Assembly: GCA_964633115.1 (NCBI GenBank)
Contig: CAZWEO010000006.1
Coordinates: 13,091 to 77,090 of the forward strand
Reading direction: 5' to 3'
DNA from: an uncultured Desulfobacterales bacterium
GTDB taxonomy: Bacteria > Desulfobacterota > Desulfobacteria > Desulfobacterales > B30-G6
Length of the DNA: 64,000 nt
The notes beneath the pieces were generated by a model. That model was not told the DNA's origin. It did not search any database and worked only from the letters and a program-made list of their open reading frames with translations. Shown here one piece after another: positions 20,036 through 41,021 of this stretch. The stretch's first letter is position 1; every line of letters starts with the position of its first letter. The position numbers and the translations under genes are program-made.

Positions 20036-21340
20036 CTAAAGCATTTTGCCAGGTAACCAAAGGGCCAATGAGGGAAACAACATGGTTAGCAAGAGGACAA
20101 TCAGCTGGATAAGGACAAACGGTGGGATGGATCGCCAGATGTCCTTGGTGTGAATTTCAGGCGGGGCCACACCTTTCATTAAAATGAGTGCCCAACCAAA
20201 GGGCGGCGTCAAATAAGCCACTTGCATGTTGAGGATAAAAATGATGGCAAACCATGTGGGATCGAATCCCAACAACACGGCAATGGGAATAAAAATGGGC
20301 GCACAAATGGTCAGGACTGCATAGTCGTCCATAAACATACCGAAAACAAGCAGGATGACTTGCATAACAGCCAGGATTAGCCAGCGGTTAACTGTCAAGC
20401 CTTCAACCAGTTCCATAACCATGTCTTGAGCCCCGGCACTGGTATACACCACCCCAAACAGAGTGGCCGTGACCAGGATCCACAGCGCCATACCGCTAAT
20501 TTTCATGGTTTCCAGGCAAGAATCGGTTAGGACCTTCCACGTTAAGCGTCTGTAGACAATACAAATCACAAAAGATCCAAAAGCACCCACCCCAGCGGCT
20601 TCACTGGGTGTGGCAATCCCCTTAAAAATCGATCCCAATACCAAGACCACCAACATAGCCGGAAGGACAATATCTTTTAAGGACGCCAGCCTGGCTTTCC
20701 AGGTCGTATCTTCAACTGCTTTGGGAGCCAATTCCGGCTGGAGGTAACAACGTACACTGATGTAAATGATATAAAGACTGGCGGTGATCAAACCGGGTAT
20801 GGCGCCGCCAAAGAAAATTTTACCAATCGAAATTCGGGAGATATAGGCAAATATGATCATGATGATGCTGGGTGGAATGATCTCTCCCAGGACACCGCCG
20901 GCCATGACACTACCCAGGGCCAGGGATTTGTCGTAGCGTTGCTTGAGCATCGCCGGCACCGCGATCAGACCCATGGTGAGAATTCCCGGCCCAAACCCAC
21001 CACACATGGCCAGGGCCACACAGACACCCACGGATACAATCGCCAGACCGCCGCGCACACCTGTAAGCCAAAGATTCAGAGCTTTGAATAAACGATCGGA
21101 TATACCCGAATGGATCAAAAAGTTGCCCATTAGGAGAAACAATGGAATTGTGATCAATCCTGGATCCGTAATTTGGCGGTAAGTGGTGGTAGCAACCACA
21201 TAAAGACCATTGGTGCCGTCCAGTAAAGAAATAATCAGTACGCTGATGCCACCCAAGGCAAACACAACTGGAACACCCAACGCCAGCAGAGAAAGAAGTC
21301 CGCCAAATAACAGGACTGTCGACAATCCAATACTCATCAT
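20036..21340 (-). CDS. dctM: TRAP transporter large permease
   Basis: TIPLFLLMG, GEIIPPSI, IATPSEAA and YLTPPFG motifs; highly hydrophobic. Confidence 0.93.
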   Translation of the reverse strand: MMSIGLSTVLLFGGLLSLLALGVPVVFALGGISVLIISLLDGTNGLYVVATTTYRQITDPGLITIPLFLLMGNFLIHSGISDRLFKALNLWLTGVRGGLAIVSVGVCVALAMCGGFGPGILTMGLIAVPAMLKQRYDKSLALGSVMAGGVLGEIIPPSIIMIIFAYISRISIGKIFFGGAIPGLITASLYIIYISVRCYLQPELAPKAVEDTTWKARLASLKDIVLPAMLVVLVLGSIFKGIATPSEAAGVGAFGSFVICIVYRRLTWKVLTDSCLETMKISGMALWILVTATLFGVVYTSAGAQDMVMELVEGLTVNRWLILAVMQVILLVFGMFMDDYAVLTICAPIFIPIAVLLGFDPTWFAIIFILNMQVAYLTPPFGWALILMKGVAPPEIHTKDIWRSIPPFVLIQLIVLLLTMLFPSLALWLPGKML

Positions 21341-21356
21341 ATTGGTTCCTTTTTGA

Positions 21357-21845
21357 TCAATTTAGACGCCGTCGGAAAAAAGATATGCCTTCTAGTAGAA
21401 ACAGAAATGCAACCACCGGTATCAACAATTTAAATGGGTAAAGGGGAATTCGGAAGGCTCCGGGTGCTTTTTCCCGCATCATCAGAGAATTCCAGCCCAT
21501 CCAGCTGGACTGCCAAATCAAAATCCCAATAAAGGCGATAAAGGCGATAAAGGCGATCCAATCGGCAACTTTTTTAAAGCCGGGTGGGAAGTGGTCATAA
21601 AAAATTTCGATACGGATATGCTCGCCCTTGTAGAGCGTATAGGCACCTGCAAACATGATGAAGACGCCGAACAAGATCCGGTTGAGGAGCCATCCCCAGA
21701 GCAAGGGGTGATTGAAGACATATCGCGCGGTTACATCTATGGCCGTTATGGCCATGATGACAAAGACTAAATAGCATACGACGCGACTCGACCGATCGAC
21801 TGCCAGATCGACCCAGTTGCAAATTTTATCAATAATTTGATTCAT
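21357..21845 (-). CDS. dctQ: TRAP transporter small permease
   Basis: DVTARYVFNHP, GEHIRIE; four TMs. Confidence 0.92.
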   Translation of the reverse strand: MNQIIDKICNWVDLAVDRSSRVVCYLVFVIMAITAIDVTARYVFNHPLLWGWLLNRILFGVFIMFAGAYTLYKGEHIRIEIFYDHFPPGFKKVADWIAFIAFIAFIGILIWQSSWMGWNSLMMREKAPGAFRIPLYPFKLLIPVVAFLFLLEGISFFRRRLN

Positions 21846-21878
21846 GCCGGCCGCCTGTAATATAAGTGTGTATACGAC

Positions 21879-21941
21879 TTCGTACGCTTACGTGAAGGTT
21901 TTGCACCATTACGTGAAGGTTTCGTACCCTTACGTGACGGT
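21879..21941. repeat. Three imperfect 21-bp tandem repeats
   Basis: ttcgtacgcttacgtgaaggt / tttgcaccattacgtgaaggt / ttcgtacccttacgtgacggt. Confidence 0.8.
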
Positions 21942-21945
21942 AATT

Positions 21946-21983
21946 AAAAGCCAGGAGGGTAATCCGTTACCCTCCTGGCTTTT
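21946..21983 (-). terminator. Strong hairpin after dctP (terminator or mRNA stabiliser)
   Basis: aaaagccaggagggtaa-tccg-ttaccctcctggctttt perfect stem. Confidence 0.8.
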
Positions 21984-22041
21984 GGCTGTTGGTTCTTGTA
22001 GGGAATGATAATCGTCGCTTGCAATAAATATGGCGGAATTA

Positions 22042-23100
22042 TTACAAATTTTTACGCCATTCTTTGATGATCTCAATGGCCTGAGCCGCGGCCGGATCTC
22101 TTTCGCCAATTTTGTCCCAGAGATCATAGGCTGCCACTTCGTGTTGACGATCACAGTCGGCATCTATCTCACTCTTTATGACTTTGCCGGCCTTAATTAG
22201 TTCATCCACTTTCTTCAGTTCGCCCACGTAAACTTTTAGCAGTTTATGGAAATAGTCTTCGGCAGCATCGGCCATGACCTGCTGCAGGTCGGCCGGCAGT
22301 GCATTCCAGGACTCCATATTGAATAGAATATGTCCCACAACGACATCGTTCTGTCCCCCCATGAGCCAATAAGGGGCCACCTCATGCCAATTCAGACCTG
22401 TAATGGCGCTGACATCCCACTGAGAGGCATCAATGGTACCCAACTTCAATCCCATATAGGCTTCCATACCACTGATATAGGTTCCCCGGGCTCCCACGGC
22501 ATTATAATAATCAGCCCAAGACCCTTCCACGCGGAATTTTAATCCCTGCATATCTTCACACGTAAGGATTTTTTTGGTGGACATGGTGATAATGGGGCCA
22601 TAGGAATGGACATCTAACCAATAGAGACCTTGGCTGGCATACTGCTCACGCAGCAAACGCACATAGCCGGTATTAAAAAACAGATTGCGGATCTCTTTCC
22701 CGGCGCTAAAAATATCCGGTTCACCCGGTAAATTATAGGCATAGGGCAGACCAAATTCGACTTCACCAATTGGCAGGATGCCACCCCACATGGCCGCTAC
22801 GGCGTGGACCATATCCAGGGTGCCTTTTTGGGTGGCCTCAAAAAGTTGCTCGGCCGGAACCAGTTCCGGATCGGCAAACACCTGAATCCGGATGCGACCG
22901 TTGCTGTTCTTTTTTGCCGTGGCGGCAAAATCATTCAGCAATTCCATACTGAGATCGCCGCGTGGATAAGCAGACTGAATCTTTAGACGATAAACTTTAT
23001 CGGCAGCTTGAGCGCTAACAGGGGCCATGACCAAGGTAGTGGCAAAAATTGCCGCCAAAATAACAGATAGTAGCAAAATTGTTCGATTCAATTTCATCAC
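22042..23100 (-). CDS. dctP: TRAP transporter substrate-binding protein
   Basis: Signal peptide; LKIQS, GLKFRV and EAYMGLKLGTIDA motifs. Confidence 0.93.
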   Translation of the reverse strand: MMKLNRTILLLSVILAAIFATTLVMAPVSAQAADKVYRLKIQSAYPRGDLSMELLNDFAATAKKNSNGRIRIQVFADPELVPAEQLFEATQKGTLDMVHAVAAMWGGILPIGEVEFGLPYAYNLPGEPDIFSAGKEIRNLFFNTGYVRLLREQYASQGLYWLDVHSYGPIITMSTKKILTCEDMQGLKFRVEGSWADYYNAVGARGTYISGMEAYMGLKLGTIDASQWDVSAITGLNWHEVAPYWLMGGQNDVVVGHILFNMESWNALPADLQQVMADAAEDYFHKLLKVYVGELKKVDELIKAGKVIKSEIDADCDRQHEVAAYDLWDKIGERDPAAAQAIEIIKEWRKNL

Positions 23101-24754: not shown

Positions 24755-24834
24755 GATGGCTTCGTGAAAAGTCCAATTTCCGTGTCTTGAACAATTTACT
24801 TTGCCCTCCCAATTTGGTTTTTTTCGAACTCATC
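24755..24834. mobile_element. 80-bp MITE-like insertion with 6-bp target-site duplication
   Basis: Termini gatggcttcgtgaaaa...ttttttcgaactcatc, flanked by atacat on both sides. Confidence 0.75.
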
Positions 24835-26287
24835 ATACATTGCTTCCATAGCGGTAGCGCAAATCATCGGTCATCACACAGCGCCGGATACGCGTAAACG
24901 ACTTGGGCCGCGTATGGCCCTCACCATTGGTGGCAATATGAAAGCTGACATAGCCTTCCCCGGTGACACCCACGCCCCCCAAACCACAAGCACCATTTTT
25001 CACAAACGACGCGCAGCTGGCCCGGCTGGCCATCAATTGGATATTGGCCAGGTTTTTGGAATGAATCGCCATGGTGTGACCAAAATTTTGTTCGGCCGCA
25101 ATCGCCCGGTCGATGGCCTCATTCACATCACGGCAGCGCACAAATGGCAGCACCGGCATAATCTGCTCGGTCCAGACCAGGGGGTGCTGATGATCTGTCT
25201 CTAAGATGACAATCTGCACCTCGGGTCCCACTTTCACATCGATTGCACCTAAGATAAATTGGGGAGTTTTACCGATATAGTCCATATTGATTTCCCCGGG
25301 CGTTCCCGCTGCGTTGACCTTTTTAAAAATATGTTTGATTAAGGCTGCCCCTTGCTGGGAACTGATTTCATGGGCACCCTGCTTCAGGAGTTCCTGCTTC
25401 AATTGATCCGCCACCGAATCGACCACGAATATTTCTTTCTCGCTGGCACAGGCGATGCAATTGGAAAAACCGGCACCCTGGATGATGCATTGGGCCGTAC
25501 GCTTTAAATCAGCGGTTTCATCCACAACCACGGGTGGATTGCCCGGTCCACCAGCGATGACGCGCTTACCGGTCTTGGTGGCAAAATCCACGACGCCATG
25601 ACCGCCGGTAACGGCAATCATACCGATATCTGCATGGGTCATGAGCTGCTGGGCGGATGGCACCGAGGGTTCCTCCAGACAACTGAGACAATTCGGGGGG
25701 CCGCCGACGGCCACAATCGCTTGGTTCAGATCGCGAATCACCCGGGCGGACACCTTTTTGGTTTTTGGGTGCGGATTAACCACCACGGCGTTTCCAGCGG
25801 ACATCATCATAATGGCGTTAAAAAGGATACTCGGCGCTGCATTGGTCACCGGGTGTACCGAAGCAATGACCCCTACGGGTAGCCGTTCGATGATGGTGAC
25901 GCCCTTATCGCCGGCAAATACTTCCGGGATTAAATCCTCCAAACCCATCACCTGGCAGGCCGATATGTTTTTATTTACATTATCCACCAGTTTACCCAGA
26001 CCCGTTTCCTCGAACTCCATGCGACCGTAGGTTTCGGCATTGGCCGTACCGGTATCCCGGATGGCCGTGATCACCTTTTCCCTTGTCTCCAAGGGCAACG
26101 CCACCAGAGCTTTCTGGGCCGTCCCGGTTGCCTGAATACAGGTAATCATGTCCTGAAATACACCATTGCCGGAAGCTGTCGCCGGTGCTGCCTCCACAGC
26201 AGTCGTCTTGCTATCCCCATCCATATTAGCCAACTTGCGCACCACCGATTCCACAATCTGATCAATAACTTTGTCGTTTAGTTTCAT
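24833..26287 (-). CDS. BMC CoA-acylating aldehyde dehydrogenase (EutE/PduP family) with N-terminal encapsulation peptide
   Basis: VIDQIVESVVRKL peptide plus linker; PVTN, VTGG, GPGNPP, catalytic Cys in IACASEKE, HTMAIHS. Confidence 0.92.
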   Translation of the reverse strand: MKLNDKVIDQIVESVVRKLANMDGDSKTTAVEAAPATASGNGVFQDMITCIQATGTAQKALVALPLETREKVITAIRDTGTANAETYGRMEFEETGLGKLVDNVNKNISACQVMGLEDLIPEVFAGDKGVTIIERLPVGVIASVHPVTNAAPSILFNAIMMMSAGNAVVVNPHPKTKKVSARVIRDLNQAIVAVGGPPNCLSCLEEPSVPSAQQLMTHADIGMIAVTGGHGVVDFATKTGKRVIAGGPGNPPVVVDETADLKRTAQCIIQGAGFSNCIACASEKEIFVVDSVADQLKQELLKQGAHEISSQQGAALIKHIFKKVNAAGTPGEINMDYIGKTPQFILGAIDVKVGPEVQIVILETDHQHPLVWTEQIMPVLPFVRCRDVNEAIDRAIAAEQNFGHTMAIHSKNLANIQLMASRASCASFVKNGACGLGGVGVTGEGYVSFHIATNGEGHTRPKSFTRIRRCVMTDDLRYRYGSNV

Positions 26288-27383: not shown

Positions 27384-28001
27384 CTAGTGTTCCCTTCCGT
27401 CTAATGCTGCCAACGCCGTCTCCGCCGCCATCTTAGCTGCCTGAATATCAGAGGTCTCACCCGCCAAATAGACACGGCCACTGGCCCCAAAAACACTGAC
27501 ATGATTGATGGTGACCTCAGCGGCTTTCTCGGCCTCATTGGCGGCATAACCTGCATAGCCGGCTGGTACGACTTCCAGAATATAAAGGGTCTCATCACTC
27601 ACGGACATGCTGGCCGATCGAAAACGATTTACAATTTGGCTCATATAGGGATTCAAACGTTCAACTGTCTCGGTCGACAATATCTTGGGTTTGAGACGAT
27701 CGCTTTCTGTACAGCCGATATAGTCTAATATAACCTGGCCGGCTTCCTGGACATCGGCGGGATCGTCCGCATGTACTTCCAGCATGCCATAAGTTCTTTC
27801 CACCACCAATGCGCCAATGCGAACGTTGGCCTTTTTCATAACAGCATCGGTAATGGTGTTGATTTCCATGCCTGGGGCAATCTCGATAAACAGCGCAGCC
27901 TGTCCCGTAACCGGGTAGTAGCCACGCGCGCTGGAGCCGATGTATGCTACCATTTGCTTTTGTAATTGATCGATAAATGCGAACGCTCGGAGGTCTATCA
28001 T
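27384..28001 (-). CDS. BMC-T shell protein, double-stacking (CsoS1D/CcmP-like)
   Basis: LRAFAFIDQLQ, EIAPG, VVERTYGMLEVH, AANEAEKAA, FGASGRVYLAG. Confidence 0.92.
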   Translation of the reverse strand: MIDLRAFAFIDQLQKQMVAYIGSSARGYYPVTGQAALFIEIAPGMEINTITDAVMKKANVRIGALVVERTYGMLEVHADDPADVQEAGQVILDYIGCTESDRLKPKILSTETVERLNPYMSQIVNRFRSASMSVSDETLYILEVVPAGYAGYAANEAEKAAEVTINHVSVFGASGRVYLAGETSDIQAAKMAAETALAALDGREH

Positions 28002-28013
28002 ATGATTCTTTCC

Positions 28014-29219
28014 CTATATGCTTTTAAGCCATTCACGCTTGTTGGGACACACCGCTGTTACCGTGGTGCAGGCGGCATTGCCCTGGCACGAACATTCATG
28101 CTCAGAACCTTTGTGAAAACGCCCGTAGCAGAAATCATTGATGGGCATCGATGTTTGGCAATCCATGATCAACTCGGAAATCAAGCGACCGATCACCGGC
28201 GCCAGCCCAAACCCGTGACCACTGAATCCGGTGGCGAAAACAAACCCGGGCACCTCCGAAGTATAACCAAGTACGGGTATGGCATCCGACATCTGAGCAA
28301 TGAGCCCTGACCACATACGAATCACATTCAAATTTTTCAAAACCGGAAAATAATCTATTACCATCTGGGAAATGGCCGGGCCAATATAGTGAAAAAGCGG
28401 TTTGCCTTCCCGGTATATGAATTGTTCAGTCCCAACAAATCCACCCCAAAAAAAGGAGCCGTGTTGTGTTTGCCGGCCGTAAAACAAACCCTTGGCATGT
28501 CCGATCATCTGTTTGAAAAGCGGCGGATAGGCCTCGGTGATCAGAGCCTCAGAGAAAATGGGTCGCATGGGGATATCCAGACCCACCATGTTGGCGACTT
28601 TGCGTCCGGCGATACCGGCGGCATCCACCACCAGATCGGTGGCAAACTGCTGTTTATCAGTTACGACACCGGCCACTTTGCCTTTTTGCATCTGAATTTC
28701 TTTGACTTCTTCATGCGTAAAGAAGCGCGCCCCGAGGCTCTTGGCCTTCAAATAAAAGCCGTAGGTTACCAAGAAGGGATTGACATGCCCGTCGGTGGCA
28801 CAGTAACTGGCCCCGATGACCTTTTCTCCCACATAGGGGTTGAGTTCCAGAACCTGCTGGCGATCCAGCATGGTCAGTTCCAAACCACTTTCGCGCTGAT
28901 TAATTATAGCTTGACGCATGGTCTCCAGCTCTTCTTCCGAAGTGCACAGCCGCAGGTTGCCTTCGCGGACATACTCCACATCCATACCGAGTTCATCGTG
29001 CAGTTGACCATAAATCTGGATACTTTCCATGGCCAGTGGCATTTCCTTCAGGTTGCGGGCGGATTGGCGCACCCCGCCGCCATTGCTCCCGGAAGCCTCG
29101 CCGCCGATGTCCGACTTTTCGATCACAACCGGCTTCAATCCTTCTTTAGCCAGATTATAGGCGATGGCACATCCCATGACGCCGCCACCGATGATGATAA
29201 TATCTGCTTTTTCGGGCAT
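28014..29219 (-). CDS. FAD-dependent amine dehydrogenase subunit (DAO / sarcosine oxidase beta-like)
   Basis: IIGGGVMG, ASGSNGGGVRQ, TGFSGHGFGLAP; Cys-rich C-terminal tail. Confidence 0.9.
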   Translation of the reverse strand: MPEKADIIIIGGGVMGCAIAYNLAKEGLKPVVIEKSDIGGEASGSNGGGVRQSARNLKEMPLAMESIQIYGQLHDELGMDVEYVREGNLRLCTSEEELETMRQAIINQRESGLELTMLDRQQVLELNPYVGEKVIGASYCATDGHVNPFLVTYGFYLKAKSLGARFFTHEEVKEIQMQKGKVAGVVTDKQQFATDLVVDAAGIAGRKVANMVGLDIPMRPIFSEALITEAYPPLFKQMIGHAKGLFYGRQTQHGSFFWGGFVGTEQFIYREGKPLFHYIGPAISQMVIDYFPVLKNLNVIRMWSGLIAQMSDAIPVLGYTSEVPGFVFATGFSGHGFGLAPVIGRLISELIMDCQTSMPINDFCYGRFHKGSEHECSCQGNAACTTVTAVCPNKREWLKSI

Positions 29220-29556: not shown

Positions 29557-30243
29557 TCAGTTGTTTGCAAAAACACCCAAACGTAAGGGTCGCACCGGCC
29601 CCCTGGCCGTGGTGGGATCAATCATTGCCGGACTGATCCCCAACTCCTGGGTTAGGATCTGGGCCACAAGACGCTGACAAGTCTGTCCCTGACAGAGCCC
29701 CATACCGGCCCGGGTAACTCGTTTAATCCCATTTAAAGTTTGCATGCCATTGCGAATGGCCGATTTGATTTCACCCCGCGTGATTTCTTCACAACGACAG
29801 ATAACCAGATCATCGATATTGTCTGACTCCGTTTCTGCTGCTTCAATTTCTTTTTTAGTCGGCTGAGCAACTGCGCTTGGAGCCGCCACTTTAGCTGAAT
29901 CCTGCTTGGCCTTTAAATGCCGAAAACGTTTGAGGACCCGGTCTACAATGGCATCAAGCTCCGCTTCCGCTATCTCCAGGGTATCTTCGGAACGCGTGGA
30001 TGCATTTTTTCCCTGCGGTACTGGTTTGTTGGTGGTTCTACGACAGTCGGGCACGGATGATTTGCGAGCTGTTTGTGATTGCTCATCTGTGCCCGGGGCC
30101 ACGGTTATGACAGTGAGTTGATGCTCTTTAATCAGATCGGCAGCAGCTGAAGAAATACGAGTTCCTTCGGCAATTTTTATTTCCTTTCCGCCGGATCTGA
30201 CGATACTGCGGACCTGTTCGCCAAATAGAAAAACGGGTGCCAT
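29557..30243 (-). CDS. BFD-like [2Fe-2S] dehydrogenase subunit with N-terminal BMC-associated domain and internal encapsulation peptide
   Basis: C-terminal ICRCEE...RAGMGLCQGQTC...RGPVRP; central ELDAIVDRVLKRF helix between low-complexity linkers. Confidence 0.85.
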   Translation of the reverse strand: MAPVFLFGEQVRSIVRSGGKEIKIAEGTRISSAAADLIKEHQLTVITVAPGTDEQSQTARKSSVPDCRRTTNKPVPQGKNASTRSEDTLEIAEAELDAIVDRVLKRFRHLKAKQDSAKVAAPSAVAQPTKKEIEAAETESDNIDDLVICRCEEITRGEIKSAIRNGMQTLNGIKRVTRAGMGLCQGQTCQRLVAQILTQELGISPAMIDPTTARGPVRPLRLGVFANN

Positions 30244-30269: not shown

Positions 30270-30380
30270 TTATTTTTTTCGCCTGCTAGGCGCAGCCTTG
30301 GCCGGCGCTTTTTTCGCTTGCCCACCTTGAACGGAAGCCTTTTCTGTCGGAATCATCAAATCAATTTCGTCATGCGGCCT
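30270..30380 (-). pseudogene. 3' remnant of a BMC-H shell gene with a Lys/Ala-rich tail
   Basis: Alternate frame reads RPHDEIDLMIPTEKASVQGGQAKKAPAKAAPSRRKK*; compare [11 protein letters not shown] in the BMC-H at 35500. Confidence 0.7.
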
Positions 30381-30982
30381 TTCATCTGGCTTAGTGTTTC
30401 AACAATTTTCTGAGCTGCGGCTTGAACTTCCGATTCGCTGCCGGCTAAATAGATACGACCGGCCGCACCAAAGAAGCGGATGTCTACGAGTCTGATGTCG
30501 CAATATTTCTCAGCTTCATTGGCGGCAATTGCAGCGTAAGCCGCCGGCGTTACTTCCAACAGATACACATCATCACCCCCCAATATCATCATCCCTTTAC
30601 TGTTGCGGTTGATGATAACGGCCTGATAGGGATCGATCTTATTAATAATACTCGTGGATAGGATGCTGGGCACCATACGATCTTCTTCTCTCAGGCCCAG
30701 CTCCTCCAAGATCATCTCGCCGGCATGTATGATCTCTTCGCGTTCGAAAGAATGAATTTCCATCATACCGTAGCGTCGTTCGACGATCATCTCACCTGGC
30801 TTTGAATTGGTGACCTTCAAACTGAGATCGGCCAGACGGTTGATGACAATACCCGGCAACACCTCCACAAACAATGAGGCCATACCCTCCACAGATAGAA
30901 ACCCCCGGCATTTACTCGCAAAAAGGGATGCAAACTGGGGCTGCATCCGATCGATGTGACAGTAGGCTCTTAGTTCGGCCAT
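30356..30982 (-). CDS. BMC-T shell protein, double-stacking (second copy)
   Basis: LRAYCHIDRMQPQ, EVLPG, VERRYGMMEIH, AANEAEK, FGAAGRIYLAG. Confidence 0.92.
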   Translation of the reverse strand: MAELRAYCHIDRMQPQFASLFASKCRGFLSVEGMASLFVEVLPGIVINRLADLSLKVTNSKPGEMIVERRYGMMEIHSFEREEIIHAGEMILEELGLREEDRMVPSILSTSIINKIDPYQAVIINRNSKGMMILGGDDVYLLEVTPAAYAAIAANEAEKYCDIRLVDIRFFGAAGRIYLAGSESEVQAAAQKIVETLSQMKGRMTKLI

Positions 30983-31052: not shown

Positions 31053-31871
31053 TCAATCGCCATCAGTAATAATCCGTATCCCATATTCCTTGGCCTGGTC
31101 GCGTGCCAATGGTGTAATCAGGCCGCCTGGAGCCACAGCGATTGTCTCTTGTTTGATATTTGCTGCGGCTTGAATATCCTTGGCAGTTAACAGGGTAAGA
31201 ACGCCATTTTGCGAATTAATATTTTTAGAGACCCCAGCACCTGCTTGTGGACCCGGGCGGCCCTGCATGTCTTGAAACGTTGCAGCCAAATTTTCAGTTT
31301 TACACATGCGCATGCCAAAGCCTTCCAGTTTGGCTACGATTTGGTTAATTTCGGATTTTATGCCTGGGTTGGCCAGTCCCTTTAACAACATGAAACCGTC
31401 ATTGCTAGCCAATACGCGTTTGCCTTGAATTAACGCTGACAGCACCATGCCGCTTTCGTCATCATCCGTGATGAGGCGGGCTACTTTTGCGGCAGTCTTA
31501 AAACAGAAAGTCGGCAGCACCAGGATGTCTGCTCTTTGCAGCACCTTTTCGAGCCCATCCCTCTTAACCGTATCTAAAATACACCGCGTGCCAGCCTGAT
31601 TCTTTACATCCTGGCCGCACACCCAGGCACGGGCCGCACCCACCGTGTAAACGCTCGATTTGGCGGCCACTTTTTCAATTTGCTTTATCTGCACCAATGC
31701 CTGTTCCAATTTCCGAACCCCGGGATGGAAAACACTAAGTATCACCGGACCCGAAGATCTGTGGTGGCGTCTGTTTAAAGCCAGCTTGCCAGCCGCACGG
31801 TCCACCAGGTCTAATTCCTGTAAAGCTTCTTGCACCAATTGGCGTATGAGTTCTTTTTGCATAACCACCAA
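31053..31871 (-). CDS. BMC-associated flavoprotein-fold/PduM-like protein with encapsulation peptide
   Basis: KELIRQLVQEALQEL N-terminus; ADILVLPT...TAAKVA; C-terminal LITPLARD motif. Confidence 0.78.
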   Translation of the reverse strand: MVVMQKELIRQLVQEALQELDLVDRAAGKLALNRRHHRSSGPVILSVFHPGVRKLEQALVQIKQIEKVAAKSSVYTVGAARAWVCGQDVKNQAGTRCILDTVKRDGLEKVLQRADILVLPTFCFKTAAKVARLITDDDESGMVLSALIQGKRVLASNDGFMLLKGLANPGIKSEINQIVAKLEGFGMRMCKTENLAATFQDMQGRPGPQAGAGVSKNINSQNGVLTLLTAKDIQAAANIKQETIAVAPGGLITPLARDQAKEYGIRIITDGD

Positions 31872-35499: not shown

Positions 35500-35778
35500 T
35501 TATTCGGCTTGTGGAATCGTAAACTCGATATCGCTGTGCGGTCTGGGGATCACGTGTACGGATACGAGTTCACCCACGCGTTCTGCAGCGGCCCCACCCG
35601 CGTCGGTGGCTGCCTTCACGGCCCCCACATCACCGCGTACAAATACGGCCACCAGTCCGCCACCCACAAATTCGCGTCCAACAAATCGAACCTTGGCTGC
35701 CTTTACCATTGCATCGGCGGCCTCGATGGCGCCAACGATCCCTCTAGTTTCTACCATACCCAATGCGTGCTCTGCCAT
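35500..35778 (-). CDS. Canonical BMC-H shell hexamer (PduA/EutM-like)
   Basis: [40 protein letters not shown]. Confidence 0.96.
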
Positions 35779-36044: not shown

Positions 36045-36554
36045 TTATGACCTAGTTTTCAGTTTAAGCGCGCGGGCCTGCATGGACCACGACCGCGGCA
36101 CTTCGATGGTAACGGTTGCGGTCTGATCCATTTTCTTGGTCTGCCGAACCTTAAGGACGGTGGCATCGCCCAGTTCCCTGCCGGCCCGGTCCAAGGCCGT
36201 CACACTATCACCTTTGGCCGGTAGCGGCCGATATTCATATGGCATCATGACACTGGCCCGGTCATCGGCTAGACTTTCATCGATCATAAATATAGCCTGG
36301 CCCGGGCAGATATACACACAGGTCTGACAGGCCACACACTTATCTTCCAACAGATGGGGAATATTGGTAATGTCATCCCCCACCACAATCGCATCGACGT
36401 TGCAGCTCGATTCACATGGATTACAAGGGATATCCTGCAAACACTCAATGGCCGCCACCGGGCCTTGGCGACGTCTCTTTTCACTGGGCAGACCCGGACT
36501 GTCTTTTAATTCTTCACCCGATAAATATCCAGTAAGCACCGACTCAGGCGGCAT
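36045..36554 (-). CDS. 2x[4Fe-4S] ferredoxin-like subunit of the amine dehydrogenase
   Basis: ECLQDIPCNPCESSC, CVACQTCVYICPGQAI, PYEYRPLP. Confidence 0.88.
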   Translation of the reverse strand: MPPESVLTGYLSGEELKDSPGLPSEKRRRQGPVAAIECLQDIPCNPCESSCNVDAIVVGDDITNIPHLLEDKCVACQTCVYICPGQAIFMIDESLADDRASVMMPYEYRPLPAKGDSVTALDRAGRELGDATVLKVRQTKKMDQTATVTIEVPRSWSMQARALKLKTRS

Positions 36555-37647
36555 GCGTCATTCCTTTCATCACCGCATTTAAATGTTCTTTGGCTTTACC
36601 GCGCACGGAACCGTGACTTCCGCTGCGCATACCGAGCATGCTTTGATATTGTTGCCCGCGTTGTTCCAAAAAGGAGACCTTGTCAATATACCCGAGGCTA
36701 TGGGCGATGGCCAATCCGGCAATGCGACCTTCAATAATTGCGGTACTGGCCTCTTCGATTCCGGCAATATCGCCACCAACGTAAACGCCCTTGATGGAGG
36801 TCTGCATGTTTTTGTCATGCGCCGGAATTTGACCGCCCAGGACCGGTTCGAAACTGGTTTTACAGCCAGCCATCCGTAACAGTTGGGTCATGGGGCTCAA
36901 ACCGACGGCAATACAAATGGTGTCCACATCAAAGCTTTTTTCAGTGCCCACAACCGGCTGCCACGATTCGTCCACTTGAATAATAGTGGCACCCTCGACG
37001 CGATCTTTGCCATGCGCCGCCTTGATGGTATGTGACATCATGAATGGCACCCCAACCCGTGCAATTTTGGCGGCATGTACGGCATAACCGCCGATTTTGG
37101 GTGCGGCATCGATTACGGCTGCAACCTTACAGCCGGCCTGCATCATCTGATAGCTGACGATTACGCCCACATTACCGGAGCCAACCATCAGAATCTGATT
37201 GCCGGGACGGACACCGTGAATGTTGGCCATAGTTTGAGCAGCTCCCGCTCCGATGACACCAGGCAAGGTCCAGCCCGGAAATGGAATCATGTTCTCGGAT
37301 GCGCCCGTGGCAACTAAAATTTTTTGGCCTTGGACATGTTCGATGCGATCACCGATCATGACATTGATACCGCCGTTCTCATAAATACCCAGCACGACTG
37401 AATTTAAAGAGACTTCCACGCCGTGCTTTTGCGCTTCCTCCAGAAAATTACGGCCGATATTGAATCCGCGCTCCTTGGCATGGTGCTCGCGCGATCCGAA
37501 AAACTTGTGAATCTGCTTGAAAAGCTGACCGCCCGGCCGTTCGTTTTCATCAAAAACAATCACCTGAACACCGTTTTTGGCGGCTGCCACGGCCGCGGCC
37601 AATCCAGCCGGACCGGCGCCCACACAAATCATTTCGTATCTACGCAT
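36544..37647 (-). CDS. FAD/NAD(P)-binding oxidoreductase subunit (sarcosine oxidase alpha / HcnB / OoxA-like), no folate-binding domain
   Basis: GAGPAGL, PGGQLFKQIHKFFGS, ATGASE...FPGWTLPGV, GSGNVG, GDIAGIEEAS. Confidence 0.9.
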   Translation of the reverse strand: MRRYEMICVGAGPAGLAAAVAAAKNGVQVIVFDENERPGGQLFKQIHKFFGSREHHAKERGFNIGRNFLEEAQKHGVEVSLNSVVLGIYENGGINVMIGDRIEHVQGQKILVATGASENMIPFPGWTLPGVIGAGAAQTMANIHGVRPGNQILMVGSGNVGVIVSYQMMQAGCKVAAVIDAAPKIGGYAVHAAKIARVGVPFMMSHTIKAAHGKDRVEGATIIQVDESWQPVVGTEKSFDVDTICIAVGLSPMTQLLRMAGCKTSFEPVLGGQIPAHDKNMQTSIKGVYVGGDIAGIEEASTAIIEGRIAGLAIAHSLGYIDKVSFLEQRGQQYQSMLGMRSGSHGSVRGKAKEHLNAVMKGMTHAA

Positions 37648-37650
37648 AGC

Positions 37651-37974
37651 TTACTCCGTGGGCTTGTGCAGGCCTTTGCCCTTTTGGGTTTCAACCACCA
37701 TGCCGGGTTTTAGCGGCTCCACGCAGGTGCGGATGTTTGGCTGCCCATTAACGACCATAATGCAGTCGGTACAACGACCGATGCCGCAAAACATACCGCG
37801 CGGTTCATTTCGGTGGGTTGTGTAACGATGAATCAGGATGCCGTTGCTGCGTAAAGCCATGGCGATGGGTTCGCCCTCAAAACCCGCCATGGATTTACCG
37901 TCAATCGTAAACTGGATCTTAGGGCCTAGTTCAAATTGCCCTAAGATTGGATGCTCATCGATTCGCATGCTCAT
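37651..37974 (-). CDS. [2Fe-2S] subunit (HcnA / sarcosine oxidase alpha N-terminus-like)
   Basis: RIDEHPILG, GEPIAMAL, RGMFCGIGRCTDC, NIRTC. Confidence 0.9.
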   Translation of the reverse strand: MSMRIDEHPILGQFELGPKIQFTIDGKSMAGFEGEPIAMALRSNGILIHRYTTHRNEPRGMFCGIGRCTDCIMVVNGQPNIRTCVEPLKPGMVVETQKGKGLHKPTE

Positions 37975-38127
37975 AATACTTCCCAACCCTAAAAAATTCT
38001 CGCTGTCCAATTAAACCATGGCCATGATTTAATCTTAAAATTTTTCATCTATGCTACTCAAAAGGCCATTGCTGGTATTGAGCGAATTATTGAATTCATG
38101 TTACCTGATTGGTGCCTGTGAAAAATT

Positions 38128-39438: not shown

Positions 39439-40134
39439 CTACCTCACCTGCTTATGGGTTGGTTTGAATAGCACGTACTCGTGCCGCCCGACGACTTTGG
39501 GAACGATGCTTTGAAAGGCACCAACATCCTGCTTGATCCCGTATTTAGCAAACAAGGCGTCCAGCTTTTTTTGCTCGTCCGGTGCTATGGGAATTAACCT
39601 GACATTGCCGCCCAGTTTATCCCCGACAGCCGGATCCAGCACGTGTATGATGCCGCCGTACATGGATTCGCCAATGCCTTCGCCCACTTCACCCAGGACA
39701 ACAATCCGTCCTCCCAGGGTCATCTTTCCGGTCCAGCGCCCCACATTGCCACAGACAATCAAATTGCCGCCCTTCATACCCCAGCCGGCGCGACTACCGC
39801 TATTACCCATGACCACAATGGTGCCCCCAACCATGGATGGAGCCACGTTACTACCGGTGTTCATTTTCACCACAATTTCACCAGCCATCATGTTATCACC
39901 TGTATACCAACCGGTATTGCCCTTGATGGTCAGGCAGGGGCCTTCCAGGAAACCGCCGGTATAAAAGCCGGTGCTGCCGTTGATGGTAATGGTAGCATTT
40001 CCGATCAAGGCCGTGGCAAAGTTGTGCATAGAGTGCGGATTGTCGATCTCAATCTGGTCTTCCGTCTTTATCATTGCCTTGAGCTGGACGTTTACCTCAC
40101 GCGAATTTTGCGCTTTAATATCTAAACGGGCCAT
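39439..40134 (-). CDS. GXGXG beta-helix protein (MgsB/GlxC-like)
   Basis: Gly-rich repeats GSTGFYTG, GNSGSRAGWGMKGG; ATG at 40134 overlaps the upstream gene end. Confidence 0.88.
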   Translation of the reverse strand: MARLDIKAQNSREVNVQLKAMIKTEDQIEIDNPHSMHNFATALIGNATITINGSTGFYTGGFLEGPCLTIKGNTGWYTGDNMMAGEIVVKMNTGSNVAPSMVGGTIVVMGNSGSRAGWGMKGGNLIVCGNVGRWTGKMTLGGRIVVLGEVGEGIGESMYGGIIHVLDPAVGDKLGGNVRLIPIAPDEQKKLDALFAKYGIKQDVGAFQSIVPKVVGRHEYVLFKPTHKQVR

Positions 40135-41021
40135 ACCTTTACGCCTCCTGGATCCATCTCCGTGGCGTACACATCGGAGACAATTGGGGTTAAACAAATT
40201 TGTTCGGATCCCAAAAGTACTGTCGCGCCCTCCTGTTCATAAAACAGCATGGGTTTGATCCCCAGTTGGTCCCTCAGTGCCCCGACCTGTTTGCCAGTGC
40301 TGACCAACAGGGTAAATACACCATCAAACGTTTCCAGGCCCTGATAAAGCGCCGCTTCCAGGTCCAGACCCTTTTCTTTCATCTGATAAGCCAGAAAATG
40401 CACCGCCATCTCAGAATCGTTGTTGGTTTTGAAGCGAATGCCCCAACTCTCCATTTTGCGACGCATGTTAAAATAATTGGTGAATTGGCCATTATGCACA
40501 ATGGCCAGTTCGGGCATTAGATAGGAAACAAACGGGTGCGCAAAATTAATATTTTCGACACTTTCCGTGGCCAGTCTCACATGGCCGATCCCATGCGACG
40601 CTGCCACCGCAGGGATTTGATGTGTTTTTTGGAGATCTTCGGCCGAGCCCTCATCCTTATAGACCTTGATCTGTTGGCCGATAGAATGCACGCACAGTTG
40701 CGGGTGGCTGTCAATTTCCCAATGCAGCCTTGGCATTTCAGCGGCATCCATATCAATGCTGGCTTCAAAAAAATGGAATACACCCTGTCCGGAATAGCTG
40801 CGCGGTGCTGCCATGGTCCCAAATTTCTGAATATAGTTTTCCAAGTCAGGTTGGTATTCAGCCGAAGTTAAGGATACGCGCAGATCAATGGCATCCCGCT
40901 TTTCGTAGACCGCCACGCCGGTGGCATCCCGTCCCCGGTGAATGAGTTGCTTTAACATGTCGATTAAGCCATTGCCCTGGGTTGCTGATTCCCCGGCAAT
41001 AAAGCCTGCAATACCACACAT
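40122..41021 (-). CDS. Class II (Ntn) glutamine amidotransferase (MgsA/GlxB-like)
   Basis: MCGIAG, HRGRDATG, GHVRLATES, AHPF, VHNG, NDSE. Confidence 0.9.
   Translation of the reverse strand: MCGIAGFIAGESATQGNGLIDMLKQLIHRGRDATGVAVYEKRDAIDLRVSLTSAEYQPDLENYIQKFGTMAAPRSYSGQGVFHFFEASIDMDAAEMPRLHWEIDSHPQLCVHSIGQQIKVYKDEGSAEDLQKTHQIPAVAASHGIGHVRLATESVENINFAHPFVSYLMPELAIVHNGQFTNYFNMRRKMESWGIRFKTNNDSEMAVHFLAYQMKEKGLDLEAALYQGLETFDGVFTLLVSTGKQVGALRDQLGIKPMLFYEQEGATVLLGSEQICLTPIVSDVYATEMDPGGVKVWPV

Follow-up and report, generated by a model that had tools for sequence, protein, structure and literature searches.

According to the available part of one account (PMC4594438; Kinney 2012, Aussignargues 2015), an encapsulation peptide is an amphipathic helix of ~15-20 residues, joined to its protein through a linker of low conservation and found only in those homologues that belong to bacterial microcompartments (BMCs); such peptides associate as three-helix bundles (PMC12339742, in the portion available). 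EutQ's N-terminal stretch is the other closely related case. As described in the accessible sections of PMC12487888, residues 1-99 of Salmonella EutQ comprise four helices, H1-H4, of which the second and third are separated by a flexible stretch: the pair H1/H2 (residues 9-41) attaches to the shell at the interface of EutL and EutM, the pair H3/H4 (residues 62-99) binds peptides from the N-termini of EutC (Kd 6.35 uM for EutC1-20) and EutE, and peptide binding is lost in the L89A and V93A variants. EutQ minus its first 100 residues shows no co-elution or pull-down with EutM (PMC4827028, accessible text). Here we describe a gene from an uncultured Desulfobacterales bacterium. It lies within 64,000 nucleotides of contig CAZWEO010000006.1 (assembly GCA_964633115.1, positions 13,091 to 77,090; this whole stretch is the window), at 29557..30243 of the minus strand (stop codon included; from the list of open reading frames, ORFs), and encodes a BMC-type small [2Fe-2S] subunit of 228 residues. 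All other features of the window given below are on the same strand. We consider it probable that this protein is the microcompartment-adapted small subunit of a five-part flavin/iron-sulfur dehydrogenase, and that its EutQ-like extension tethers the dehydrogenase as cargo.

The protein consists of three conserved segments separated by two linkers. Residues 1-51 (30091..30243) are a small beta-alpha-beta-alpha-beta domain of the kind that opens EutQ (H1/H2), recognised from model confidence (pLDDT), from alignment with a neighboring protein encoded at 31053..31871 (the 31053 protein) and from EutQ and EutT matches to its hidden Markov model (HMM). Linker 1 (residues 52-88; 29980..30090) is variable and disordered. 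It is followed by a conserved, putatively amphipathic helix of the encapsulation-peptide type (residues 89-111; 29911..29979), identified by conserved columns, AlphaFold2 and hhalign, which aligns with EutQ H4; by a second variable and disordered linker (residues 112-143; 29815..29910), delimited by alignments, AlphaFold2 and composition; and by the C-terminal domain (residues 144-228; 29560..29814). The latter is a BFD-like [2Fe-2S] / sarcosine oxidase A3 domain, as judged from Pfam, PDB matches and invariant cysteines, and is predicted to bind a cluster. Pfam assigns residues 147-198 to Fer2_BFD (E 1.7e-14, 54.3 bits, cut-off 26) and residues 152-226 to SO_alpha_A3 (E 1.5e-11, 44.9 bits, cut-off 23.1). 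The nearest solved sequence is 1y56_A 408-491 (E 9.6e-12), which forms the C-terminal domain of the alpha subunit in L-proline dehydrogenase from Pyrococcus horikoshii, followed by SoxA and Bfd; a Foldseek search with the model of all 228 residues recovered SoxA (root-mean-square deviation 1.2-2.7 over 62-68 columns) and Bfd (TM 0.83-0.86).

Homologues of the whole protein are numerous: of the candidates with near-length sequences, 673 reach E <= 0.001. The 120 that score best (214-264 residues; identity 54-70% over 92-100% of the query) come, where named, from Desulfobacterales or 'Deltaproteobacteria' assemblies, and the helix is present in all 120 of the near-length homologues inspected. 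Conservation was read from two alignments, of 24 and 68 homologues. The BFD domain is nearly invariant, with C149, C151, C184 and C189 invariant in 68 sequences; A34, L37 and I38 of the small domain are invariant in both alignments; and over residues ~89-111 R106 is invariant while E97, I99, F107 and K111 are kept at >= 90%. Residues 52-88 and 112-143 are without consensus in either alignment (linker 1 varies in both length and sequence), and hydrophilic or small residues make up 90% of linker 1 and 88% of linker 2. AlphaFold2, run with the 68-row alignment, agrees: residues 1-50 take up the beta-alpha-beta-alpha-beta fold (pLDDT 88-97), residues 93-119 are helical (block-mean pLDDT 78-88), and pLDDT falls below 50 for residues 53-90 and 118-135. 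A preliminary description, made from the letters of the window and a list of its ORFs, had read the last ~85 residues as BFD-like and had placed a helix between low-complexity linkers; both readings hold. It had also likened the N-terminal domain to one in the 31053 protein, and here too it was right: residues 5-47 align without a gap with residues 227-269 of that protein (hhalign 90%, E 1.5e-6).

The extension (residues 1-143) is specific to BMC loci, as the preliminary description had expected. In a scan of one genome per species we took the best 80 loci of at least 600 matching stretches (568 confirmed). Seventeen of these match from residue 1-3, and all 17 (every one a Desulfobacterota assembly) have at least one shell gene within 10 kb. 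The remaining 63, from Bacillota, spirochaetes and others, match the C-terminal domain only: none has the extension and none has a shell-gene match. Where the contig covers it, these 63 loci present a contiguous operon Fer2_4 - Pyr_redox_2 (mostly fused to Fer4, ~526 residues) - BFD - DAO, in which the BFD gene has a median of 110 residues (61 ORFs, range 90-155, by the longest-ORF rule) and a median of 19 residues before the position aligned with residue 144, compared with 143 here. Long tblastn matches at four non-BMC loci (L031, L060, L066 and L076) cross a stop codon or run upstream of the start codon, and are not extensions.

The same comparison can be made within the phylum, for which 401 genomes were evenly sampled (22 with shell genes, 379 without); counts from this sample are given without a statistic, and related genomes are not independent. 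The extension alone matches nine of the 401. In six, the source genome included (E <= 1.5e-8), the match lies within ~6 kb of BMC-domain matches on the same contig, so that all six real matches stand beside shell genes. The other three are weak matches (E 6e-5 to 6e-4) in genomes without shell genes and were treated as spurious: that in G371 is a ribosome-recycling-factor gene, that in G136 is an antisense frame over the acetyl-CoA carboxylase beta gene, and that in G395, which has the same 186-residue frame and alignment range as G371, was judged spurious on that likeness. An extension in a genome lacking BMC genes, the finding that the preliminary description had named as fatal to its proposal, was thus encountered neither among the best 80 loci nor among the 401 phylum genomes.

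Profile alignment shows what the extension is related to. Residues 5-109 are collinear with EutQ 4-106 (hhalign 96.2%, E 2e-9), and the helix falls on EutQ 85-100; on this evidence the extension is homologous, in order, to EutQ residues ~4-106. The small domain corresponds to H1/H2, and a flexible region follows it (residues 53-90), as in EutQ. The EutQ cupin (PF06249) is absent from the 228-residue protein and was not found in the whole genome (94% complete).

The small domain also occurs as a module of its own. A profile that combined both copies (that of the 228-residue protein and that of the 31053 protein; 28 rows) was searched against 1.84 billion representatives and matched 796 proteins at E <= 0.001, 49 of them at E <= 1e-10; the domain occurs once or twice per protein in a family of at least 796 representative proteins. 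Pfam domains were assigned to 85 of 150 listed carriers, leaving aside short fragments, three repetitive proteins of great length and some ~256-290-residue members of the 31053 family. As partners these carriers have EutQ (16), Nitro_FeMo-Co (NifX-like; 9), BFD/SO_alpha_A3 (6), RpiB (3), E3_binding (3) and Flavoprotein (2), with PduL, EutN and enoyl-CoA hydratase once each. Against the 11 Eut proteins of E. coli K-12 the small-domain HMM picks out EutQ residues 3-37 (E 1.6e-5) and EutT residues 19-47 (E 3e-6), the other reported matches among the 11 being at E >= 0.28: the domain opens both EutT and EutQ (eutT L091:7503-8306, eutQ L091:8303-9004). In the phylum sample it gives 22 matches in 16 genomes (E <= 1e-4). 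All 16 belong to the 22 genomes with shell genes, all 22 matches lie on the same contig as a BMC-domain match and within ~5 kb of it, and none of the 379 genomes without shell genes has the domain. Since 10 of the 16 genomes lack the BFD extension, the small domain serves other compartment types too. A Foldseek search with the full model found only generic beta-alpha-beta fragments for it (E > 0.1), specific matches being confined to the BFD domain.

The helix, for its part, shares much with encapsulation peptides. It is short (core residues 89-111; modelled helix 93-119), a poorly conserved linker (residues 112-143) separates it from the functional domain, and it is confined to BMC-associated homologues (17/17 vs 0/63 loci). 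Its position, however, is not terminal: a folded domain of 51 residues and a linker of 37 lie N-terminal to it. The preliminary description had noted a resemblance to helices in the acylating aldehyde dehydrogenase (AldDH) and the 31053 protein. With 30-column profiles hhalign gives E 6e-6 against the AldDH helix and E 7e-5 against that of the 31053 protein, and with full-length profiles E 0.002 (AldDH) and 0.003 (31053 protein), the best match falling in each case exactly on the N-terminal helix. As a likeness between sequences the resemblance is weak.

The domain architecture, the homology to EutQ and the confinement to loci with shell genes are observed, and they suggest a mechanism, although which module binds what, and on which shell face, we infer by analogy with EutQ. 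Like EutQ H1/H2, the small domain would dock on the shell, most likely on an EutM-like hexamer, for which the window offers a candidate: an EutM-like BMC-H shell protein encoded at 35500..35778 (Pfam BMC 2.3e-27; NCBIfam EutM 4.6e-37). Like EutQ H3/H4, the helix would pack with the N-terminal peptides of AldDH and the 31053 flavoprotein, or with itself, to which the three-helix bundling reported for encapsulation peptides would be suited (PMC12339742, available portion); its partners may thus be the peptides of other cargo, which it would accept or join in a bundle, and not the shell itself. The remaining dehydrogenase subunits would be drawn in along with the BFD domain. The [2Fe-2S] subunit would then both mark the dehydrogenase as luminal cargo and assume the bridging role of EutQ, a role that would fall to a stand-in because no EutQ was found in the genome (94% complete). 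The 31053 flavoprotein, with the same two modules in reverse order, may share that role.

A predicted complex weakly favours docking on BMC-H. The small domain together with three copies of the EutM-like protein (a half-hexamer) scored 0.59 where the best of three controls scored 0.00; runs agree in >= 92% of contacts and partner pLDDT is >= 83. The mark used is passed by 58 of 80 solved complexes and by two of 110 mismatched pairs, and scores of 0.60 or less belong to only seven of the 80 solved complexes and to both mismatches. Passes of this kind are wrong more often than not, except where the pairing was already probable on other grounds, as the homology to EutQ H1/H2 makes it here.

Several observations weigh against the tethering proposal. 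The predicted complex is weak by its own calibration, and it concerns a half-hexamer with no interface reported. The hydrophobic moment of the helix (0.51; compared with 0.45 and 0.42 for the N-terminal helices of AldDH and the 31053 protein) is reached by 9% of shuffles and is exceeded elsewhere in the protein. With HMMER, none of the profiles made from the locus's three helices picks up another at E <= 5. When the helix is compared without the small domain, the same EutQ segment (H4) is still picked as best, but with E 0.06 and a probability of 0.9%. EutQ has two helices (H3 and H4) where the extension has one, and EutQ H1/H2 are reported to bind at an EutL-EutM interface while the present locus is without an EutL-type tile, its trimers being CcmP-like and PduT-like. 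P0137 (183 residues, one 50%-identity cluster) is made of the small domain, a single proline-rich linker and the BFD domain; the helix is missing and is thus dispensable in at least one lineage. Every carrier of the extension is a metagenome-assembled genome. Finally, Held et al. assumed that EutQ sits on the cytosol-facing side of EutM (PMC4827028, accessible text); this disagrees with the account in the available sections of PMC12487888, so the shell face is unsettled even for EutQ.

The roles of the modules could also be divided differently. If, along the lines of the preliminary description, the helix alone were a classical encapsulation peptide that binds the shell and provides the sole targeting signal, the small domain would be free for another task, such as binding the flavoprotein or else the PduS-like protein so that electrons can be passed on. 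The helix does have most of the published attributes (PMC4594438, as far as available), its best match within the full AldDH profile is the AldDH N-terminal peptide, and the small domain is common to the 31053 flavoprotein. Set against this are the internal position of the helix and the fact that it is the small domain, not the helix, that is kept in every member of the family, P0137 included. Moreover, the EutQ segment for which shell binding has been observed by experiment (PMC12487888, accessible sections) is a homologue of the small domain, and this domain is carried by unrelated enzymes in BMC loci of other types. We consider this division of roles unlikely.

Two further alternatives give the extension a main role other than packaging. 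In one, the small domain is a module resembling the peripheral-subunit-binding domain of 2-oxoacid dehydrogenase E2, which holds the E3-like Pyr_redox_2 subunit and helps to assemble a dehydrogenase whose genes are split into two groups; encapsulation would play no part. The presence of a Pyr_redox_2 flavoprotein among the subunits fits, as do Pfam E3_binding matches in three of the 85 carriers (best E 1.8e-5) and a weak E3_binding (PF02817) match of the C-terminus of the 31053 protein (E 0.036; 14.7 bits, under the cut-off of 23.7). Yet the N-terminal 55 residues of the 228-residue protein have no Pfam-A match at E <= 10, the same dehydrogenase is assembled from non-BMC operons that lack the small domain, and in BMC loci the domain sits on EutQ, PduL, RpiB, NifX-like and hydratase proteins, for which no E3-like partner is required; we regard such a role as very unlikely. 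In the other, the extension anchors to the shell a swinging [2Fe-2S] electron carrier, by which a luminal dehydrogenase hands on its electrons to the PduT-like [4Fe-4S] tile and the PduS-like protein: redox export, not packaging, would be what it mainly serves. The disordered linkers on either side of the helix are indeed long (~37 and ~32 residues), the locus does encode a PduS/RnfC-like protein and a PduT-like tile, and no PduL-type phosphotransacylase (PF06130) was found in the genome (94% complete), which makes for an unusual core. The homologous domain is, however, a fixed part of the alpha subunit in 1y56_A and SoxA, and in non-BMC operons this constant subunit is encoded between the Pyr_redox and DAO genes. 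Of the readings considered, redox export by a swinging carrier seems to us the least probable.

Tethering by an EutQ-like extension remains the reading that we prefer, and it bears on which proteins the compartment holds. The catalytic subunit, a DAO/SoxB-like FAD protein of 401 residues (28014..29219; Pfam DAO 1.8e-71), is encoded directly downstream of the BFD gene; the other three subunits (36045..38010; assigned by Pfam/NCBIfam) are Fer4 (36045-36554), Pyr_redox_2/SoxA-like (36544-37647) and Fer2_4 (37651-38010). The same three subunit genes flank the BFD gene in all non-BMC operons; there, on every contig long enough to show them, BFD stands between Pyr_redox(-Fer4) and DAO. In BMC loci ~6 kb of shell and accessory genes part the dehydrogenase genes into two groups. 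Pyr_redox_2 and Fer4 are separate genes in BMC loci and a single gene of ~526 residues in most non-BMC operons (L018-L080), the two being split also in the non-BMC loci L040, L042, L043, L070, L077, L079 and L080.

The DAO subunit has a BMC-specific feature of its own. A C-terminal tail of ~33 residues (residues 369-401; 28017-28115; defined by alignment) is present in the window and in 13/13 aligned orthologues from BMC loci, and is absent from 10/10 aligned non-BMC orthologues. The tail is cysteine-rich, with the pattern CxC...C...C in the window and in 11/13 BMC orthologues (loci compared: L001, L005, L006, L008-L017), and its last residues form a nearly invariant motif of the CPNKREWLKSI type. 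It may act as a further targeting peptide or make up a small metal site.

AldDH (24833..26287; NF011927 E 1e-151) begins with a putative encapsulation peptide (residues ~3-21; 26225-26281) that is conserved and then gives way to a variable linker in an alignment of 12 sequences. The 31053 protein (272 residues) comprises an amphipathic helix at its N-terminus (residues 3-19), a linker, an HFCD/UbiX-type flavoprotein fold (residues 43-204), a second linker and the small domain (residues 225-269). Its AlphaFold2 model has a mean pLDDT of 82.9, the first linker being disordered, and Foldseek places it with CoaBC/UbiX/EpiD (E 8e-6 to 1e-5; 65 matches at E <= 0.001), while the ESM Atlas gave a lead as well; by its modelled fold it is probably an FMN protein. 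A phmmer search of the 31053 protein against PDB sequences gave nothing useful.

A glutamine synthetase (GS)-like ligase and three proteins resembling N-methylglutamate synthase (Mgs) are also encoded in the locus. In these the preliminary description had seen no obvious peptide, and indeed they have no added residues when compared with orthologues from the non-BMC loci L033, L064, L067 and L074 (two loci for GS), an absence from which a cytosolic location may be inferred. Because the extension occurs only in BMC loci, and because the GS- and Mgs-like proteins are without one, the dehydrogenase is the strongest candidate for the cargo that forms the aldehyde. On the combined evidence the proteins marked for the compartment are the dehydrogenase, AldDH and the flavoprotein, which accords with the preliminary description. 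The original idea, an encapsulation peptide grafted onto the [2Fe-2S] subunit as the mark of the signature cargo, thus survives in altered form. The helix is real and BMC-specific, but it is internal and appears to be the second module of an EutQ-like region, whose first module corresponds to the shell binder of EutQ; and the [2Fe-2S] subunit is not alone in being marked, since the DAO tail is BMC-specific too.

The gene order of BMC loci is conserved: Mgs-like genes, the three dehydrogenase genes, five shell/accessory genes, EutJ, the 31053 protein, a BMC-T gene, the gene of the 228-residue protein, DAO, a second BMC-T gene, RpiR, AldDH, RidA and then, in eight loci, a TRAP transporter. The shell genes of the window are those at 35500, 35178, 34838, 32699, 30356 and 27384. 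The two BMC-T proteins are CcmP-like paralogues of the double-stacking type, one directly upstream of the 228-residue protein gene (30356..30982) and one directly downstream of DAO (27384-28001); their matches to NF053796 (E 4.6e-68 and 7e-70) are both below the cut-off. In two related loci an additional BMC-H-like gene (L004:2881-3231, L006:1183-1530) separates the gene of the 228-residue type from the CcmP-like BMC-T gene; at that place the window has only a gap of 112 bases. The transporter (DctPQM; 20036-23100, with its binding protein at 22042-23100) adjoins the BMC locus here and also in L001, L008, L011-L015 and L017; from what is generally known of TRAP systems, it suggests that the substrate is a carboxylate- or sulfonate-bearing amine. 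The source genome contains one BMC locus (94% complete assembly). With neither a PduL-type phosphotransacylase nor an EutQ cupin found, that locus would count as a metabolosome with an incomplete core.

The pathway genes of the locus encode the GS-like ligase, a glutamate-synthase-like trio (GATase2, GXGXG and FMN) and the Sox-like dehydrogenase. The GXGXG ORF as listed (39439-40197) shares 76 bases with the end of the GATase2 gene that lies upstream of it; since orthologues begin at its residue 22, the real start is probably that methionine. Four non-BMC loci (L033, L064, L067 and L074; Bacillota, Desulfosporosinus and Syntrophomonas among them) combine Mgs-like genes, the five-part dehydrogenase and RidA, have no shell genes and in two cases (L064 and L067) include a GS-like gene. 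They look like an anaerobic N-methylglutamate-like pathway without a compartment, and are natural comparators for the BMC version.

A wider proposal, which we offer tentatively, is that the small domain of ~45 residues is a general shell-docking module of metabolosomes, borne by EutQ, EutT, PduL, RpiB, flavoprotein, NifX-like and enoyl-CoA hydratase proteins as well as by the [2Fe-2S] subunit, which here would have taken over the EutQ bridge in an undescribed compartment that oxidises an N-alkylglutamate-type amine conjugate to an aldehyde. The bridging role of EutQ and encapsulation peptides are published knowledge. Our literature search found no paper that treats the N-terminal part of EutQ as a module portable to other enzymes, and none that describes its fusion to a signature-enzyme subunit; nor did it find a tie between microcompartments and sarcosine oxidase, or a compartment around this dehydrogenase with an N-methylglutamate-like pathway, although the supplementary catalogue of PMC8217296 (68 locus types) may list the locus type. 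The available main text of that BMC catalogue (PMC8217296) has no glutamine or glutamate synthase, sarcosine, Desulfo-, EutQ or flavoprotein, and EutQ is not mentioned in the accessible part of the SPU paper.

If the small domain is a portable shell-docking module, then it supplies a second sequence rule, beside the encapsulation peptide, for predicting the cargo of uncharacterised microcompartments, and a new tag for loading engineered cargo. The bridging mechanism of EutQ would reach beyond Eut compartments, and the bridge could sit in a subunit of the signature enzyme. The data further point to a flavin/iron-sulfur dehydrogenase resembling Sox and proline dehydrogenase as the aldehyde-forming enzyme of a Desulfobacterota compartment with an amine pathway of the glutamine-synthetase / N-methylglutamate-synthase-like kind.

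In its pathway genes the locus resembles the N-methylglutamate pathway of methylamine use (gmaS, mgsABC, mgdABCD). The dehydrogenase of that pathway is SoxBDAG-like, whereas here it is of the split Fer2_4/Pyr_redox/Fer4/BFD/DAO type, and here the genes stand in a BMC locus that also encodes an acylating AldDH and has a TRAP transporter, itself conserved. The BFD-like domain (residues 144-228) is shared with 1y56_A, with the A3 domain of the alpha subunit of heterotetrameric sarcosine oxidase (1vrq, 2gag) and with Bfd (4e6k, 6e6r). In the solved relatives 1y56_A and SoxA it is a fixed part of the alpha subunit, while here, as in non-BMC operons, it is a separate polypeptide, to which an extension of 143 residues has been added. 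The 31053 protein has a counterpart in TIGR02536 ('eut_hyp'), which it matches over residues 95-268, C-terminal small domain included (E 1.8e-10); its score of 40.8 bits is nonetheless far under the cut-off of 152.6, and the protein of the window has an extra N-terminal helix and linker.

With the classical encapsulation peptides of PduP, PduD, EutC, EutE and CcmN the extension has in common the short helix, which may be amphipathic, the variable linker and the restriction to BMC homologues; in those cases, too, the rest of the enzyme is expected to piggy-back (PMC4594438, available part). Unlike them, the helix here is internal, a folded domain and a further linker being N-terminal to it, and even to the AldDH peptide of its own locus its sequence likeness is weak. 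It is with EutQ's N-terminal part (residues ~1-100) that the order of modules is the same: a small two-helix domain, a flexible region, a putatively amphipathic helical segment and then the functional domain, which in EutQ is a C-terminal cupin (PF06249) and here is the [2Fe-2S] subunit of the presumed signature enzyme.

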